Assembly (NCBI GenBank): GCA_051277025.1
Contig: JBNMPT010000001.1
Location: forward strand, 32 to 64,031
Length of the DNA: 64,000 bases
Direction of reading: 5' to 3'
Origin: Roseivirga sp.
GTDB taxonomy: Bacteria; Bacteroidota; Bacteroidia; Flavobacteriales; Schleiferiaceae
Under the pieces are notes generated by a model. The model saw nothing but the letters and a program-made list of their open reading frames with translations. It was not told where the DNA came from and searched no databases. This document shows, one piece after another, positions 688 to 9,500 of this stretch. The translations under genes were made by a program, and so were the position numbers. How positions within the stretch are numbered: position 1 is the first letter of the stretch; the number at the start of each line of letters is the position of its first letter.

Positions 688-2523
688 ATGAAAAATCTAC
701 TTCTTACAATCCTTATACTTTTTTCAGGAATTTCCTTGAAGGCCGAAACCAAGCTTGATTCTATTTTTACGGTCTGGCAGGATGAAACACAAGCTGACAC
801 AAGCAGACTGCAAGCTATCCACAAATTTATCCTCCAGGGCTATATATACAACCAACCTGATTCAGCTTATTATTTTGCCCAAAAACAGTTGGACTTTGCC
901 GAAAGGAAAGGACTAAGTAAATACATAGCCTTAGCATTAACAACTCAGGGACTTTCACTTCGAATTAGAGGTGACTATCCCAACTCTCTTGTTTATCATA
1001 AAAAAAGCATGCTATTTTATGAGGAAATAGGGGATAAAACCGGTATCGCTGGTGCTTTGGTTAATATTGGGAATCTCTATGCTATTCAAAGCAATTTTGA
1101 TAAAGCCTTGGAATATTTTGAGCAAGGCGCTTCTATTTGCGAAGAAATTGGTGAAACCTATTTTTTGGCCAACGCCACGCTTAACATTGGCTCAATTTAC
1201 CAAATGCAAGGCGAATACACTAGATCCCTTAAATATTTCCTGAAAAGCTTAAAAATCTACCAAGAGAACCAGTACAAAACCGAGATCGCTGACGCACAAT
1301 ATAATATAGGTGGGGTCTACGAAGAAGATGGTGATTTTCCTAAAGCGCTAGACTTTTACCTACAAAGTTTAGAAAGCTATGAGGAATTAGAAGATAAGTA
1401 TGGAATTACATTTTCTCTAGTTTCAATTGGTAACGTTTATTTCAAGCAGGGCTTGACGGATGATGCAATTAGTCAATGTGAAAAATCACTCAATTTCGCA
1501 AAGGAAATAAATTCAATTGATCGCCAAGAAGCAGCATGTATATGTCTTTACGATGTCTACAAGGCGATTGGGAATGACAAGAGTGCTCTGAAGTATCATG
1601 AACAAATGTTAATATTATCAGATAGCTTACAAGCGGAAGAAACCAATTTGAAACTGCAAAAAATGGATTTTCAGAAGCGAATGTTAGCCGATAGCATGGC
1701 TACTGTTGAAAGAGAACGCTTGGTGCAAGAAGAGCATCAAGAGGAAGTAAAACAAAAGAACCAAATTCGCAATATGCTAGTCGGAGGTGGGGTCTTGATT
1801 CTGATCATTGCCAGTGGAATCTATAGCCGTCTGAGATATACTAATAGGGCCAAAAAAATTATCGAGAAAGAGAAAGAACGATCCGAAAACCTCTTACTTA
1901 ACATACTACCCGCCAATATAGCCGCTGAATTAAAAGAAAAGGGCCGAGCCGAAGCACGAGAGTTTGAAATGGTTAGCACCCTCTTTTCAGACTTTAAAGG
2001 TTTTACCGCAGCAAGTGAAAAATTGAGCGCTCAAGAGTTGGTTGCGGAAATCAATACTTGTTTCGAAGCTTTTGATAATATAATGGGCAAATACAATATT
2101 GAGAAAATAAAAACCATTGGCGATGCTTATATGGCGGCCGGCGGTCTTCCTGTCCCATCAGACGGTTCTGCTAAAAACACTGTGCTTGCTGCGCTAGAAA
2201 TGCAAGCTTTTATTTCTGCTAGAAAAATTAAAATGGATACCCTAGGCAAACCTGCTTTTGAAATGCGTGTCGGCATTCATACCGGACCCGTAGTTGCGGG
2301 CATTGTGGGCGTTAAAAAATTCCAGTATGACATTTGGGGTGACACCGTTAACACTGCCAGCCGCATGGAGTCTTCTGGAGGCGTTGGTAAAGTAAATATA
2401 AGCCAAGCTACTTATGAACTTCTCAAGAATGATCTAAAGTTTATCTTTGAATCTCGCGGCAAAATTGAAGCAAAAGGAAAAGGCGAAATGGAGATGTGGT
2501 TTGTTTCAATGAATAGCCAATAG
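688..2523 (+). CDS. TPR-repeat, single-TM class III adenylate/guanylate cyclase (ATP-specific motifs)
   Basis: Signal peptide, TPR repeats, TM (MLVGGGVLILIIASGIY), LLLNILP helix, FSDFKGF, EKIKTIGDAYM, YDIWGDTVNTASRME; Lys and Asp specificity residues indicate ATP. Confidence 0.93.
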   Translation: MKNLLLTILILFSGISLKAETKLDSIFTVWQDETQADTSRLQAIHKFILQGYIYNQPDSAYYFAQKQLDFAERKGLSKYIALALTTQGLSLRIRGDYPNSLVYHKKSMLFYEEIGDKTGIAGALVNIGNLYAIQSNFDKALEYFEQGASICEEIGETYFLANATLNIGSIYQMQGEYTRSLKYFLKSLKIYQENQYKTEIADAQYNIGGVYEEDGDFPKALDFYLQSLESYEELEDKYGITFSLVSIGNVYFKQGLTDDAISQCEKSLNFAKEINSIDRQEAACICLYDVYKAIGNDKSALKYHEQMLILSDSLQAEETNLKLQKMDFQKRMLADSMATVERERLVQEEHQEEVKQKNQIRNMLVGGGVLILIIASGIYSRLRYTNRAKKIIEKEKERSENLLLNILPANIAAELKEKGRAEAREFEMVSTLFSDFKGFTAASEKLSAQELVAEINTCFEAFDNIMGKYNIEKIKTIGDAYMAAGGLPVPSDGSAKNTVLAALEMQAFISARKIKMDTLGKPAFEMRVGIHTGPVVAGIVGVKKFQYDIWGDTVNTASRMESSGGVGKVNISQATYELLKNDLKFIFESRGKIEAKGKGEMEMWFVSMNSQ

Positions 2524-2528
2524 CGAAA

Positions 2529-4658
2529 ATGACTAACAATACATATCATACTTATGGTCAAATGAAAAAGGCAAAGAAAGCCTCTTTCTCATTTCTCCTT
2601 ACTTGGTTTACAATTCATTGTTCGCTATTCACAGTCCATGCACAAGAGGTTAAGACCGATTCCCTTTGGAATATATGGATTGACGAAACGCAAGCAGACA
2701 CCACACGATTAAAAGCCATACACACAATTGGCCTTAATGGCAACAGCACTCTTCAGCCTGACTCTGCCTTCTACTATTCCCAAATGGAGTATAACTTTGC
2801 TAAAGCAAAGGCCCTTAAAAAACAAATGGCGGATGCCTTAAGTACCCAAGGAAGTTCATTTTATCATAAAAACGACTTTATCCAAGCCAGGCAATACCAT
2901 AATAGAAGCTTAGAGCTAAGTGAAGAAATCGCAGATAAAAAAGGAATTGCCCTTTCCCAAATCAATATTGGATACACCTTTAGAAAAAAAGGAGACTATA
3001 CAAAAGCCATCGAGCACTATCAAAAAGGTCTAAAGATTCGAGAAGAAAGTGGTGATAAAAATGAAATTGCTAAGGCGGTAAGCAGCATTGGACTTATGTA
3101 CGATTTACAAGGAGACTACCCGAAAGCGCTAGACTATTACCAACGTAGTTTAAAAATTTTAGAGGACCTTGGAGATAAACTCGGCATTGCTAGGGCCATA
3201 AGCAGTATTGGACTTATGTACGATTTTCAAGGTGACTACCCGAAAGCGCTAGATTATTACCAACGCAGTTTGAAGATTTGTGAGGAAATGGGATATGAAT
3301 GGGGCATATCTATGAACCTAAATAACATTGGTCTTATCTACGATAATCAAAAGGACTACTCCAAAGCGCTAGATTACTATCAGCGCAGTTTGAAGATCTC
3401 AGAGGAAGATGGAGACAAAGACGATCGTGCCATTGCACTTAGCAATATTGGAGAGATTTATAGTAATCAAGAAAATTATGAGCAAGCCTTCTCCTATTTT
3501 GAACGTAGCTTAAAAATAAGCGAAGAAATAGGAGATCGATTGAAAATGACGCATCCCTTAAGGGGTATTGGAAATGCCTATAGAAAACAAGGTCAATACA
3601 AGAAAGCTATTAGTCAATGTTTAAGGTCCCTTAAAATAAGTGAGGAAATGGGAGCTACTTTCGAACAGAAAGGTGCTTGTGAATGCTTGTATGAGTCCTA
3701 TAAAGCTCTCGGCTTGGGCAGCAAAGCTCTAGATTACTATGAGCAAATGATCGTACTTAAGGATAGCCTTTTTAATGAAGAGAATACCAAGAAACTTACT
3801 CGCATTGAACTTCAATATGAGTATGACAAAAAGGAAGCGGCCTCCAAATTAGAGCAAGAAAAAAAGGATGTTCTTGCTACAGAAGAATTAAGAAGAAATA
3901 AACTTATCAGAAATGTCTTTATGGGCGGCTTTGCGGTGGTTTTATTATTTGCAGTTGCATTTCTTAGCCAACGAAACAAAATTAAAAAAAGCAAAAAGCA
4001 AAGTGATGACCTTTTACTAAACATTTTGCCTGCCGAAGTAGCTGAAGAACTAAAAGCCAAAGGCCAAACCGAGGCCAAGCATTATAATCAAGCATCTATT
4101 TTATTTACAGATTTCAAAGGCTTTACAAATGCGGCGGAAACCTTAAGTCCTAAAGAGTTGGTAGATGAGATTAACATCTGCTTCATCGCTTTTGACCATA
4201 TCTGCGAAAAGTATAACATCGAAAAAATAAAAACCATTGGAGACGCATACATGGCAGCAAGTGGGCTATTCGATCAAGGTACCAAAACGCAAATTTCTCA
4301 GGCTAACTTGATTAAAGGTGCTCTAGAAATGCAAGCTTTTATGATTACTAGAAGTAAAGAATTAGAATTTAAAGACATAACAGGATTTCAAATGCGGGCT
4401 GGTATACATACTGGGCCAGTAGTAGCAGGAATTGTGGGAATTAAAAAATTCCAATATGACATTTGGGGAGATTCAGTAAATACGGCCAGCCGAATGGAAA
4501 GTCATGGTGAAGTGGGACGGGTTAATATTAGCGAAGCTACCTATCGCTTGCTTAAAGACGAGTCAGATTTCACTTTTGAAAGCCGCGGTAAGATTGAAGC
4601 CAAGGGAAAAGGGAAAATGGAAATGTACTTTGTGAACTTCAAAACTGACAAATTTTAG
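2529..4658 (+). CDS. TPR-repeat, single-TM class III adenylate/guanylate cyclase (paralog; start may be 2562)
   Basis: Signal peptide, ~8 TPRs, TM, FTDFKGF, EKIKTIGDAYM, YDIWGDSVNTASRME. Confidence 0.93.
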   Translation: MTNNTYHTYGQMKKAKKASFSFLLTWFTIHCSLFTVHAQEVKTDSLWNIWIDETQADTTRLKAIHTIGLNGNSTLQPDSAFYYSQMEYNFAKAKALKKQMADALSTQGSSFYHKNDFIQARQYHNRSLELSEEIADKKGIALSQINIGYTFRKKGDYTKAIEHYQKGLKIREESGDKNEIAKAVSSIGLMYDLQGDYPKALDYYQRSLKILEDLGDKLGIARAISSIGLMYDFQGDYPKALDYYQRSLKICEEMGYEWGISMNLNNIGLIYDNQKDYSKALDYYQRSLKISEEDGDKDDRAIALSNIGEIYSNQENYEQAFSYFERSLKISEEIGDRLKMTHPLRGIGNAYRKQGQYKKAISQCLRSLKISEEMGATFEQKGACECLYESYKALGLGSKALDYYEQMIVLKDSLFNEENTKKLTRIELQYEYDKKEAASKLEQEKKDVLATEELRRNKLIRNVFMGGFAVVLLFAVAFLSQRNKIKKSKKQSDDLLLNILPAEVAEELKAKGQTEAKHYNQASILFTDFKGFTNAAETLSPKELVDEINICFIAFDHICEKYNIEKIKTIGDAYMAASGLFDQGTKTQISQANLIKGALEMQAFMITRSKELEFKDITGFQMRAGIHTGPVVAGIVGIKKFQYDIWGDSVNTASRMESHGEVGRVNISEATYRLLKDESDFTFESRGKIEAKGKGKMEMYFVNFKTDKF
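3066..3400 (+). repeat. 120-bp-period tandem repeats encoding near-identical TPR units
   Basis: AGCAGCATTGGACTTATGTACGATTTACAAGGAGACTACCCGAAAGCGCTAGACTATTACCAACG (3081) recurs almost exactly at 3201 and more loosely at 3321. Confidence 0.85.
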
Positions 4659-5181
4659 AGCAACTTAGAGTCGTATCAAAGGCTTGGCCCAAATAATAAC
4701 GATATGCAACTTTCAGCAGCTAATACCTGCGGTGCTCTTATGCTGTGTTTCGATTTCCATCACAAAGTTATTTTACACAAAAATATATGGCTTTGTTTTA
4801 GTTTAAAACTTGTTAGTATTAGTAGATAATTTTCCTATTAAATCTCAAAAACGTAAATTTCAGTCCTTCATTATATATTGATACAGCTCTATTAAGCGGT
4901 TCAACTGCAGTAAGTGGTGGCAAAGGAATGAATGACTCAAAGACCTTTAATTTAACTATAGCTAAGTTACTGCTTATTCTATCTTGCATTCCTTTTGAGA
5001 AGCAATTAGTGAGTGACTCCTTTCAAAGTCATTCACTGATTAAAAACCAATAATTGTTATTTACTGAAATTGTTAATTTAGAGAAATCATAGACCGACCT
5101 TCGTTTTGAGTCGATTTAATAGAAAATCACATAATTTTTTCTTAATGACTGCCAAAGGCAAGGATTAAATCCCCGATAGTA

Positions 5182-6000
5182 ATGAAAATAAAATTTTACG
5201 GTACTAGAGGCGCCATTCCCGTTTCTGATAAAGATTTTCTAGAATTTGGAGGCAATACTACCTCGATAAAAATAACCCGAGATAATGGTCATATTGCTAT
5301 TGTGGATTCAGGCACAGGTATTCGTAATTTAGGTAACGATCTACTTAAGGATGGCTTTCTTCAAGATGAATTAATTATCGTCTTTACTCATTTTCATTGG
5401 GATCATATTCAAGGTTTTCCTTTTTTCGCACCTGCCTATAATCCTAATGGGATCATTAATATACTTGCTATGGGAAAAGACAGAGAAATTATAAACCTTG
5501 AGGATATTTTCAGAGGACAAATGAAAACTGAATATTTTCCAGTCCCATTGGAAGATATGGGTGCCAAATTCAATTTTCTGCAAATTGAAAAGAATGAATT
5601 GAAAAGCAATGGTGCCTTAATCAAAGTGATTAAACAAAACCATCCCGGTGATTCCTATGGTTATCGTTTGGAGGAAAATGGTAAAGTTTTAGTGGTTTGT
5701 ACGGATCTAGAACATGGGAATTCGGTTCAAGCAGATATCGTAGAGTTTTGCAAGGACGCAGATTTATTAGTGCATGATGCCCAATATACAAGCGAAGAGC
5801 TTCAAAATCACCGTGGTTGGGGACACAGCAGCTATGAGCAAGCAATAGAAGTAGCGGAAAGAGCTAATGTTAAGAAACTCGTTATAACCCATCATGACCC
5901 AGACCATAACGATGTATTTTTAACAAATATTGAAAAAGAATGCCAAAAAAGATATCCCAAATGTGTTCTGGCAAGAGAAGGAATGGAATTTACAATATAA
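5182..6000 (+). CDS. MBL-fold metallohydrolase, putative cyclic-nucleotide phosphodiesterase
   Basis: FYGTRGAIP...GGNT, DSGTG, THFHWDHIQG (HxHxDH), HPG, DLEH, HDAQY, GWGHS, THHDP; this family is often found beside class III cyclases; substrate is inferred. Confidence 0.85.
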   Translation: MKIKFYGTRGAIPVSDKDFLEFGGNTTSIKITRDNGHIAIVDSGTGIRNLGNDLLKDGFLQDELIIVFTHFHWDHIQGFPFFAPAYNPNGIINILAMGKDREIINLEDIFRGQMKTEYFPVPLEDMGAKFNFLQIEKNELKSNGALIKVIKQNHPGDSYGYRLEENGKVLVVCTDLEHGNSVQADIVEFCKDADLLVHDAQYTSEELQNHRGWGHSSYEQAIEVAERANVKKLVITHHDPDHNDVFLTNIEKECQKRYPKCVLAREGMEFTI

Positions 6001-6590: not shown

Positions 6591-9500
6591 TTAACTTTCA
6601 AATGAAATAATTAGCTTGTCAGATGTTGGTCTAGCTTGGCAGGCTAAAATCATTCCGCGTTTCTTTTGTCCTTTCGACAAAGCGTCATCAATATCCATCT
6701 CTGCTGTCCCTTCTACTACCCGACAAATACATGTTCCACAGAAACCTTCTTCACAAGAGAAAGGTGCGTCCACTCCCACTTCTGCAGCGGATTCAGTTAG
6801 ATAACAACCTTCCATATTAGGAACGATGTGTTCTTCACCAAAAATATTCATGGTTATCGTTTTCGCTGCTATCACTTGCGTAGCTTTTGCTACCGCTTCA
6901 ACTTTTGGCGCCTCTTGGCTTTTAACTTTCTTCTTTGGTGATGCAAATTTTTCAACATGAACACGATCATCATCAACGCCCATATCCAACAAGCCCTCTT
7001 CTACAACATCCATAAAGCCCCAAGGACCACAAACAAAATAGAGTCCGCTCGTAATTTCGTCACAATATGATTGCACATCACGAGTATCGATACGACCTTC
7101 TGCTTTGCCTAATCGATGAATAACCTTAAAGCGCTTATTATACTGTTTTTTTAGGGCATCCAACTCGTTACGGAATATGGTTTCTTCTTTATTCCTATTC
7201 ACGTAAACAAAACGCACCTTACGATCAGAAGTATTTAAAAATTCTTTAGCAATAGATAAAACCGCCGTAACCCCACTGCCCGCAGCGAATAAATACAAAT
7301 CACCCTTTTTATCTGGTACTGTGAAACGTCCGTCTGGTGCGAGAGCGTTTAAACTATCACCAGCCTTGATATTATCGCATAACCAGTTACTTACCATACC
7401 ACCCTTAACACGTTTAACCGTAATACGCAAATCGTCATCAATACTTGGGGCGCTAGATAATGAATAGGCTCTTTTATGTGTCTCTCCCTCAATATCTAAC
7501 GATAAGGTTAAAAACTGACCAGGTCTATAGCTTAGGTATTCCTCTTTTAAATCATCTGGGACGCTTATGTAGAACGACTTACTGTCGGCAGTTTCTTCTG
7601 CAACTCTTGCCACCTTTAGTTCATTGAACATCTTTTTTGTTCGCTTAACTTGGGTGGTCGAAGCCTCTACTTTAACTGCTGTTAAAGCTGAGGTTTCGAC
7701 CTTGGCCGTTGATTCTATACTTGCCGTTACTGCTGTTACATCATTTTTTTTTTTTAAAGAAGCAAGGATTGATGTATCACCCATAAACTGGTCTGGATTA
7801 TCTGTCCCACAATTTGGACAGCCTTTTAACACATCGTCTTGATAATAATTACACGTTGGGCACTGGTAAACTTTAAAGTAAGCACGAGGCTTATTTAATT
7901 TATTAATCACTCGATTTCCGTCACCATCGAAATTATTAAAGACGGTATTGAAATCAATACCCTTCGTTTTACCTATATCGCGACACATTTTATTAAATGG
8001 ATCGATGATCGCGGCAATGTCATGAGCCATTTTTTCGGGGTCACTTTGATCGGCTTCAAACTTCTTTTCTATTTCTCTTACCTCTTTTATTAAACCTGTC
8101 CAGGTCGGATTTAAAGGATCAAATACATATGGGTCACGGCTACTATAATGGCCTTTGGCTAATACATCTATGCCTCCCCAATGAAATTTAGCATTCATGG
8201 TTTTCTCAAATGCTAAAGGGTGTGCCCAAGAGCGATATAACATATCAGTTTCTTGAACTAATACCGGGTATAACTCAGAGCCATATTTAGAGTATTCTGC
8301 AAAAGCGCTTTCTTCATAATTTTTTTCGTCTAGGGCTTTTACAGTATCAACAGCAGCCATGTAGGATGTTCCACTTCCGTAGTTAATACCGTGCGAGAAT
8401 AAGGGGTTAGAGAATTGTGCGCTATCTCCAATTGCCACCCAACCCTTACCTGCTACTTGGGTCGAGTCGTGCGCTAAACCTAAGAATGCAGCATATGGGC
8501 GGCGCTTTTCTCGGTAAGGTTTTTCAACTAATTCATAATGCTCAAGTATCCAAGCAAAAGCTGGGTACCTTTCTGCATAATGCATAAATCTTTTTTGAAT
8601 CGGTAAATCTTTCGCGGTATCCATATCATCACGAACGGTAATACCGATGGATGTAATAGGTTCAAATTCAGTACCATGCTTTTCTTGAAAGAACTTTCGT
8701 GGTGGTACATCAGAATCTTCCTCAGAATCATGGTCCATCACGTCATTCACCATTTTCAACATGGTTTCATCATCTGCACTTTCCCACGAATGAACCGTAA
8801 TAAACCAAATCCAACCTTGAGGCGTGCATAAATGACGAGTGGCTGGTTCTTGCCATCTCGCTAAAGGCACCTGCTTCTTTTGTCTAAAATATGCAAAGTA
8901 GCAGTTGGTCTGAAATGTGTCGTGAATCGCAGGGTCTTTTCTATAAGTACCTAAGTGACGTGGAAGGACTGCCGCTGGGCCAGTAGCATCACATACAAAA
9001 CGGGATTTAATGGTAAACGATTCGCCATTTTCATCAATACATGCCAATTGTTTAACTTTCCCATCTAATTGACAATCGTCAATTTCAACATGTGTATTAA
9101 CCTTAAAATCAATACCTTGCTCCTTAGTTAAACGCTGTAATGCCATTTCAAAGACACGTCGTTCAATTTGAAAAGTTTCTTCCAAATCGGTAATATCACA
9201 TTCGCTTTCTGGCTCTTTGCTTTCTGTTCCCATCCACCAAAAACGGATACCTCCTTTGTTTCCAAATAAGCGACGCATTTGAGGCATGGTGAATCCCATC
9301 GCTAGAAAGCACCTTACCGTGGTTGAAAGTGTGGATTCACCGACTTTATAACCGGGGACTTGTCTTCTTTCTAAGATAACGACTTTGCTTTCAGGTCGCA
9401 TACGTTTAACCCATTGGGCATAAATCATACCCATTGGTCCGCCACCTAATACCGCTACGTCGTAATCTACCTCTGAATCATCACTTAAGGGTGCTGAAAT

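Follow-up and report, generated by a model that had tools for sequence, protein, structure and literature searches.

Which class of halogenase is encoded near one end of the 64,000-nucleotide stretch of Roseivirga sp. DNA analysed here (contig JBNMPT010000001.1; hereafter the window), and what might such an enzyme be doing in a bacterium without a natural-product cluster around the gene? The gene in question encodes a protein of 1297 amino acids and lies, with all of its domains, on the minus strand, and an earlier note on this DNA had proposed that its halogenase domain belongs to the zinc-ribbon class of the fungal enzyme MalA rather than to the PrnA or PltA types. MalA and MalA' of Malbranchea aurantiaca (PDB 5WGR and related entries) are zinc-binding flavin-dependent halogenases of malbrancheamide biosynthesis. 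MalA is described in a review as fungal and as the first of a new zinc-binding halogenase class, and is listed in its structure table as a variant A halogenase that acts on premalbrancheamide and on the monohalogenated derivatives of that compound (PMC8407142). On the evidence presented here, we consider it probable that window positions 7785-9482 encode the catalytic domain of a MalA-type Zn-ribbon flavin-dependent halogenase, that this domain belongs to a bacterial family mostly fused to cyclic nucleoside monophosphate (cNMP)-binding domains, and that the fungal clade apparently branches from within that family. The domain is the middle part of a sensor-halogenase-reductase fusion.

Comparison with known halogenases

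A phmmer search with residues 330-900 against all PDB sequences was headed by five MalA' entries (E 1.9e-45 to 1.6e-44), followed by PltA (1.4e-19), CndH (9e-18) and then CmlS, Bmp2 and Mpy16, with every solved halogenase other than MalA' at E 1e-19 or weaker; the values for RadH and a tryptophan 5-halogenase were 4e-4 and 5e-3, respectively. For residues 335-900, an AlphaFold2 model was obtained from an alignment of 51 sequences comprising the window domain and its relatives (alignment A1); the mean predicted local distance difference test score of the model is 94.8. When this model was submitted to Foldseek, MalA' was returned first (template modelling score, TM, 0.88; E 8e-40) and PltM second (0.67), while alignment to MalA' with VIA gave a Z score of 37.7 and a root-mean-square deviation of 2.5 Å over 551 of 566 residues (model 4-566 against chain 35-626), with Bmp2 as the runner-up (Z 31, 383 residues). 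MalA' is therefore the best match by sequence, by family profile and by predicted structure, and it is on this basis that the domain is placed in the MalA-type class, as the earlier note had it, and not in the PrnA/RebH or PltA/CndH types.

The domain comprises a FAD (flavin adenine dinucleotide)-binding Rossmann core, the lysine K410, the WxWxI and FxxPxxSxG motifs, an insert, and a helical C-terminal lid closed by a ribbon of four cysteines (Cys4). In the model the fold resembles that of MalA throughout the domain, with the post-WxWxI insert, the lid and the ribbon all included, and the sequence likeness takes in the catalytic lysine, GxGxxG, WxWxI and FxxPxxSxG, as well as four cysteines on the Zn-ligand columns. 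There are also clear differences. Identity to MalA' is only 24-25% in the structural alignments, the spacer between the cysteine pairs is 10 residues rather than 12, the position of MalA H253 is occupied by alanine, and the counterpart of MalA E494 is uncertain. Unlike MalA, the protein has a bacterial host, combines the halogenase domain with two sensor domains and a reductase in one chain, is not surrounded by a biosynthetic cluster, and within the family stands in a lineage separate from the fungal clade. The other solved enzymes compared (PltM, PltA, Bmp2, Mpy16, CndH, CmlS, CtcP and RadH) share the FAD-binding core and the catalytic lysine region (Z 25-31), but they are without the MalA-type insert and the C-terminal lid and ribbon, and align over only 360-450 residues.

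Three other assignments were considered and rejected. The carrier-dependent (variant B) type represented by PltA and CndH is disfavored by E values of 1e-19 or weaker against 1e-45 and by the MalA-like lid; furthermore, no genes for carrier proteins, nonribosomal peptide synthetases (NRPS) or polyketide synthases (PKS) are found in the window or in eleven homologue loci from the set L003-L014. With tryptophan halogenases of the PrnA/RebH type, only an N-terminal flavin-binding region of about 60 residues matches (profile E 1e-6 to 1e-8; Z 23-24). A match to geranylgeranyl reductases, to FixC or to some other clade outside MalA, which would have spoken against the earlier proposal, was looked for, and such proteins score far lower: the GG-red-SF model gives 61 bits against a cutoff of 159, FixC and geranylgeranyl reductase are at profile E values of 3e-13 and 9e-13, respectively, and geranylgeranyl reductases reach a Foldseek TM of about 0.5.

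Halogenase motifs and the Cys4 ribbon

The features of the gene and its halogenase domain are as follows, with conservation referring to columns of alignment A1.

6591..10484, minus strand: whole gene, 1297 amino acids (open reading frame and translation; Pfam and NCBIfam domains)
7785..9482, minus strand: flavin-dependent halogenase domain, MalA (Zn-ribbon) class, residues 335-900 (PDB phmmer, AlphaFold2 model, Foldseek, VIA)
9429..9446, minus strand: GxGxxG FAD-binding motif GGGPMG, residues 347-352 (G13, G15 and G18 invariant or nearly so)
9255..9257, minus strand: K410, counterpart of MalA Lys108 (alignment to MalA'; column at least 90% conserved, 51 relatives)
8799..8813, minus strand: WxWxI motif, W558-I-W560-F-I562 (W226 invariant, W224 and I228 at least 90%)
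8658..8798, minus strand: class-specific insert that follows WxWxI, residues 563-609, modelled as two helices (aligned with MalA'; AlphaFold2 secondary structure)
8388..8414, minus strand: FxxPxxSxG motif FSNPLFSHG, residues 691-699 (P360 and G365 invariant, F357 and S363 at least 90%)
8166..8186, minus strand: FHWGGID, residues 767-773, region aligned with MalA E494 (register ambiguous by one residue)
7809..7862, minus strand: Cys4 ribbon C875, C878, C889, C892, C-x2-C-x10-C-x2-C (conservation; MalA' alignment)

The motifs from which MalA had first been suggested are all present between residues 347 and 703 and in the order that they have in MalA: PGYKVGESTL (377-386), RRLFGNKGG (404-412, which includes K410 and stands against LRLFGLKDG of MalA' in the phmmer alignment), QIER (439-442), RHLCTPQGWIWFITVHSWE (550-568), TSIGITVRDD (611-620) and GWVAIGDSAQFSNPLFSHGINYG (681-703), with the four-cysteine pattern found exactly where it had been reported. 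The MalA motifs given in the earlier note, PGYKIGESTL, LRLFGLKDG, NHLCFPEGWVWVIRLPSWEG, TSIGFAVRND and GWLAIGDACGFTNPLYSPGINVG, match the alignment essentially. Given that MalA' heads the search of the PDB at E 1.9e-45, the agreement in motifs lies far beyond chance.

The residues expected to matter for halogenation are well kept. K410, W558/W560/I562 and F691/P694/S697/G699 are invariant or at least 90% conserved in the 51 relatives, the fungal ones included. K108 of MalA is the catalytic lysine (PMC9144378), and K410 is predicted to be the lysine that handles the hypohalous acid; FxxPxxSxG is a conserved, halogenase-typical motif (PMC12645471). The WxWxI motif continues as WIWFIT (558-563), with threonine at the usual proline position, which in MalA is arginine. 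The insertion that follows it had been proposed to be shared with MalA, and in the alignment of MalA' with the window domain GWVWVIRLPSWEG does stand opposite GWIWFITVHSWES, with the segment of about 45 residues that comes next (563-609) aligned in both; this segment falls in an unmatched gap of PltA, CndH, CmlS, Bmp2 and RadH.

The Cys4 ribbon consists of CPTC (residues 875-878; 7851-7862) and CPNC (889-892; 7809-7820), and among the 51 relatives the cysteine is invariant in three of the four columns and at least 90% conserved in the fourth. C875, C878, C889 and C892 share columns with C597, C600, C613 and C616 of MalA', the latter numbers being counted along the alignment of MalA' with P0067, a MalA relative (658 amino acids; 65% identical) from the fungus Calcarisporiella thermophila that aligns with MalA' residues 2-644 at E 5e-245 and whose cysteines occupy the same A1 columns as those of the window protein. 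The family profile, which covers MalA' residues 35-617 (E 3e-146), pairs the two Cys4 motifs directly, and the structural alignment with the model spans the Cys4 region. The motif is found in most family members, with a spacer of 10 residues in the bacterial ones against 12 in MalA and its close relatives. The earlier note had named superposition on the MalA zinc site as a point on which its proposal could fall; the cysteines lie on the Zn-ligand columns and the structural alignment runs through the ribbon, so that the Cys4 ribbon, as judged from these alignments, putatively corresponds to the structural Zn site of MalA.

A bacterial family and the place of the fungal enzymes

When 1.84 billion cluster representatives (clusters at 50% identity) were searched exhaustively with HMMER, only 58 reached E<=1e-30, and word-indexed searches gathered about 130 family proteins. 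Most members carry an N-terminal cNMP_binding domain and eight have in addition a tail of FNR (ferredoxin-NADP+ reductase) and Fer2 domains, while stand-alone forms of 550-620 amino acids also exist. The named members come from Nocardia, Labedaea, Anaerolineae, Acidobacteriota, Ca. Kapaibacterium, Calothrix/Dulcicalothrix and Flavobacteriales, about six phyla, and go under generic names such as "tryptophan 7-halogenase" or "cyclic nucleotide-binding domain-containing protein". A 90%-identical copy in a metagenome-assembled genome of an uncultured Flavobacteriales was the sole relative from a scan of genome contigs, and the window encodes type IX secretion system sorting domains, which is consistent with Bacteroidota. 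The representatives at greater distance belong to fungi (Thelotrema, Phlyctema, the chytrid Zopfochytrium and Calcarisporiella). In Calcarisporiella thermophila there are three paralogues of a protein that closely resembles MalA', and the chytrid Zopfochytrium polystomum also has a member (P0067, P0270, P0271 and P0097).

Trees were inferred from the domain as cut from 68 non-redundant full-length members together with eight outgroup sequences of the CndH/FasV/CmlS type, the type having been checked for three of the eight. A quick IQ-TREE run (LG+C20) and a careful tree of 74 rows, from which the two longest branches were omitted, agree; support is given as ultrafast bootstrap (UFBoot)/SH-aLRT. 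The Zn-ribbon family, P0067 included, is separated from the CndH-type outgroup (100/100) by the longest branch in the tree. The window protein falls in a clade of six (100/100), five of which are reductase fusions; the sixth, P0006, has no such tail, and its 90%-identity neighbor P0010 has a reductase as the next gene. All fungal-like sequences stand in one clade (100/99), which also holds P0062, a protein that is bacterial by its gene neighbors. The sister group of the fungal-like clade (95/93) consists of two bacterial stand-alone proteins whose cluster members are found in plainly bacterial contexts, and an approximately unbiased (AU) test rejects a single bacterial clade (delta log-likelihood 39.4, p 0.0225; the group to be tested was chosen with the tree already known). 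From the bacterial sister pair and the AU test, it is most likely, with moderate support in these sequences, that the fungal MalA clade branches off among the bacterial lineages.

The suggestion that the window encodes a bacterial member of the MalA clade is thus upheld in part. Judged by its sequence, the protein is a member of the class, yet it is not a near relative of the fungal enzymes, from which it is set apart by an identity of 24-25% and by its position in a separate, well-supported bacterial lineage. It had further been suggested that the protein would be informative on the origin of the fungal enzymes; this is the case insofar as it is one member of a family in which the fungal clade appears to be nested (sister pair 95/93, AU p 0.0225), with a deep backbone that is weak.

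Sensor domains, reductase and a proposed mechanism

Outside the halogenase domain, the protein is built of the following modules.

10125..10376, minus strand: cNMP-binding-like domain A, residues 37-120 (Pfam PF00027; sequence)
9546..9959, minus strand: cNMP-binding-like domain B, residues ~176-313 (Pfam, in two stretches; NCBIfam match 176-313; sequence)
6999..7616, minus strand: FNR-like FAD-binding and NAD-binding module, residues 957-1162 (Pfam PF00970 and PF00175; PaaE model TIGR02160)
6624..6845, minus strand: plant-type [2Fe-2S] ferredoxin domain, residues 1214-1287 (Pfam PF00111)

By Pfam and NCBIfam, the order is two cNMP-binding-like domains within the first ~320 residues, the halogenase domain (the Trp_halogenase/FAD domain begins at residue 342), and a PaaE-like FNR and [2Fe-2S] reductase made of FAD_binding_6, NAD_binding_1 and Fer2 (residues 957-1287). 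In the phosphate-binding cassette of domain A alanine replaces the usual arginine; in that of domain B the usual glutamate is missing and lysine replaces arginine. Both cassettes are thus non-canonical (FGEITLMDPGPASATV and FGLISLVDNGPKWATA, window 9708-9728 and 10218-10238, minus strand). The pattern of the first, GE..(L/M)DPGPA(S/T)A, is also seen in the distant members P0033, P0034, P0043 and P0044, and by reason of this recurrence it looks like a conserved family signature rather than decay.

The C-terminal 345 residues match the NCBIfam PaaE model TIGR02160 over its full length (E 3e-73); as the score lies under the curated cutoff, we refer to the reductase as PaaE-like and not as PaaE. 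With the class I oxygenase reductases PaaE, KshB and GbcB it shares this full-length match, a flavin motif of the RxYS type (RAYS, residues 1005-1008) and the plant-type Fe-S motif. It differs from them in the sub-cutoff score, in having no Rieske or di-iron oxygenase partner encoded nearby, and in being fused to, or in locus L003 adjoining, a halogenase.

Halogenase and electron supply are likewise joined in one polypeptide in Bmp5 and in XanH, a natural halogenase-reductase fusion (PMC8407142), and also in AetF. As these enzymes are described, the window protein is set apart from them by its partner, a PaaE/KshB-like FNR with a plant-type [2Fe-2S] module, which differs both from a flavin reductase domain and from an in-built NADPH site. 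Eight members (P0001-5, 7, 8 and 13) carry the reductase as a fusion, and in loci L003 and L004 the FNR and Fer2 reductase is a separate gene directly downstream. Since the fusion seen in the window is a split operon in these relatives, a functional link between halogenase and reductase is supported. In its split version, the arrangement (L003 9525-13386; L004 5833-9694) consists of a gene for a 159-residue cNMP-binding protein, one for a 775-residue cNMP-halogenase and one for a 335-residue FNR and [2Fe-2S] reductase; a TauE gene lies ~700 bp beyond the reductase gene on the opposite strand.

It is reasonable to postulate how such a protein might work. The flavin of the fused FNR module would take electrons from NAD(P)H and pass them by way of the [2Fe-2S] centre to the FAD of the halogenase, where the reduced flavin, O2 and halide would give rise to hypohalous acid. 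K410 would then direct the hypohalous acid onto an electron-rich carbon of an aromatic substrate held beneath the Zn-stabilized lid, the target probably being free rather than carrier-bound, and the two N-terminal sensor domains would gate the activity. A free substrate, as the earlier note had also proposed, fits the full MalA-like C-terminal lid together with the absence of carrier-protein, NRPS and PKS genes from the window and the eleven loci; neither points to indole, which that note had put forward as one candidate.

Genomic context and alternative readings

Two genes of the same strand lie directly upstream of the halogenase gene.

10561..11361, minus strand: Ser/Thr protein kinase, 266 amino acids (Pfam; same order in L008 and L009)
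11358..12653, minus strand: TauE/SafE-family membrane protein, 431 amino acids, overlapping the kinase gene by 4 nucleotides (Pfam; same order in L008 and L009)

The order TauE-kinase-fusion is also found in relatives at 81% and 77% identity (L008 7807-9899; L009 7291-9392). The kinases of this arrangement are stand-alone proteins of ~266-270 amino acids, and a 45%-identical member (L006) likewise has a kinase gene after it. On its other side, the halogenase gene is convergent with two tandem genes for tetratricopeptide repeat (TPR) proteins with class III adenylate/guanylate cyclase domains and with one for a hydrolase of the metallo-beta-lactamase (MBL) fold (window 688-6000, plus strand); in L008 a TPR-cyclase is also encoded upstream. 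Among the distant members, a separate gene for a cNMP-binding protein of ~160-175 amino acids overlaps the start of the cNMP-halogenase gene (L003-L007, L009 and L010). No biosynthetic cluster is found around the stand-alone cyanobacterial member (L011) or around the bacterial sisters of the fungal clade (L013 and L014), so that these surroundings offer no clue to the substrate.

Several observations weigh against the assignment to a MalA-type halogenase derived as we propose. The structural match may be biased, as AlphaFold2 was possibly trained on MalA, which was released in 2017, and the alignment given to it included fungal MalA relatives. At the column of MalA E494 the profile alignment places I772, with D773 next to it, and the pairwise reading places D773; an aspartate at or near this column is kept in most bacterial members, not in all. 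The deeper nodes of the tree are weak (26-63) and its root lies on a very long branch. The canonical phosphate-binding residues are missing from both sensor domains, and a PaaE-type Fe-S reductase differs from the type of flavin reductase that known halogenases use. Last, the neighborhood is signalling-like, with cyclases, a kinase and sensor domains and no biosynthetic genes, and for this reason a role other than natural-product halogenation is possible.

The alternative that survives best is that the protein has the MalA fold and yet is no halogenase in vivo, serving instead as a flavin monooxygenase or as a redox or signal-output module under the control of the sensor domains and the kinase, for example by releasing hypohalous acid or peroxide or by modifying a protein. 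The two TPR cyclases, the MBL-fold hydrolase, the Ser/Thr kinase and the TauE-like membrane protein make up a context of the signalling type, a kinase is again found beside the distant members L006, L008 and L009, the glutamate that MalA needs has no secure counterpart, and the presumed electron donor is an Fe-S reductase of the oxygenase kind. Against this stand the lysine in the K108 column, WxWxI and FxxPxxSxG, the residues that tell halogenases from monooxygenases, which are conserved in bacterial and fungal members alike, as well as the closed MalA-like lid, which in the model is fully present and would form a separate substrate pocket. In light of these, we judge this alternative to be unlikely.

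It is far less likely still that the Cys4 motif is a rubredoxin-like iron site through which electrons pass from the fused [2Fe-2S] domain to the flavin of the halogenase. The fused Fe-S reductase would provide the electrons for such a relay, and the second knuckle, CPNCG, is a classic rubredoxin knuckle as well. The 10-residue spacing, however, fits a zinc ribbon, not a rubredoxin. The same Cys4 motif is present in members without a reductase and in the fungal relatives of MalA, the site aligns with the Zn ligands of MalA, and MalA itself is described as a zinc-binding halogenase (PMC8407142).

That the likeness to MalA is superficial, and the domain really a PltA/CndH-type halogenase or a geranylgeranyl-reductase/FixC flavoprotein, is scarcely credible: Pfam Trp_halogenase does match well over the first 80 residues only, and NCBIfam GG-reductase, LodB and QhpG models match weakly, but such proteins score at least 25 orders of magnitude below MalA' by sequence and align over 350-450 residues against 551, the CndH-type sequences are split from the family at 100/100, and carrier-protein genes are absent nearby.

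Implications of a bacterial MalA-type family

With the MalA-type reading preferred, the class of MalA is seen to include a bacterial family, with about six phyla among its named members, in which the catalytic lysine, the halogenase motifs and the Zn-site cysteines are kept. Our searches of the open-access literature found no description of a bacterial MalA-type halogenase or of one fused to cNMP-binding domains, although descriptions may exist elsewhere. The apparent position of the fungal clade inside the bacterial family provides a testable account of the origin of the fungal enzymes. Furthermore, if active, the members fused to sensors and a reductase would be ligand-controlled halogenases that are self-sufficient in their cofactor supply, a property of some relevance to biocatalysis, where the separate flavin reductase is a nuisance. 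The family also bears on the role of halogenation in bacteria where no natural-product cluster surrounds the gene. Only tentatively do we propose a wider picture, in which these are unstudied bacterial Zn-ribbon halogenases that are gated by a ligand sensed through their CRP-type domains, lie outside biosynthetic gene clusters, are here powered by an Fe-S reductase and act on a free metabolite or signal molecule, the fungal MalA-type late-stage halogenases having been derived from them by transfer; we regard this as possible, though doubtful.

Further features of the locus

Among 150 further genomes of the same family, 15 of them of the same genus, none had a match to the halogenase gene at E<=1e-30. 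The first 14 kb of the window have a G+C content of 0.36-0.41, lower than the 0.40-0.46 of the remainder, and a fragment of DUF4372 (a transposase N-terminal domain) is present at 12964-13287 (plus strand), beside the operon. The absence from those genomes, the lower G+C content and the transposase fragment together point to an accessory island.

Three more cNMP-binding proteins are encoded near the 77%-identical homologue (L009 13473-19240), one of them in fusion with an aminotransferase class V domain and another with an MGS domain, which suggests that sensor domains of this kind are widely attached to enzymes in these bacteria. Within the window gene, the linker that joins the Zn ribbon to the reductase module contains 12 consecutive A on the coding strand (7744-7755, minus strand).

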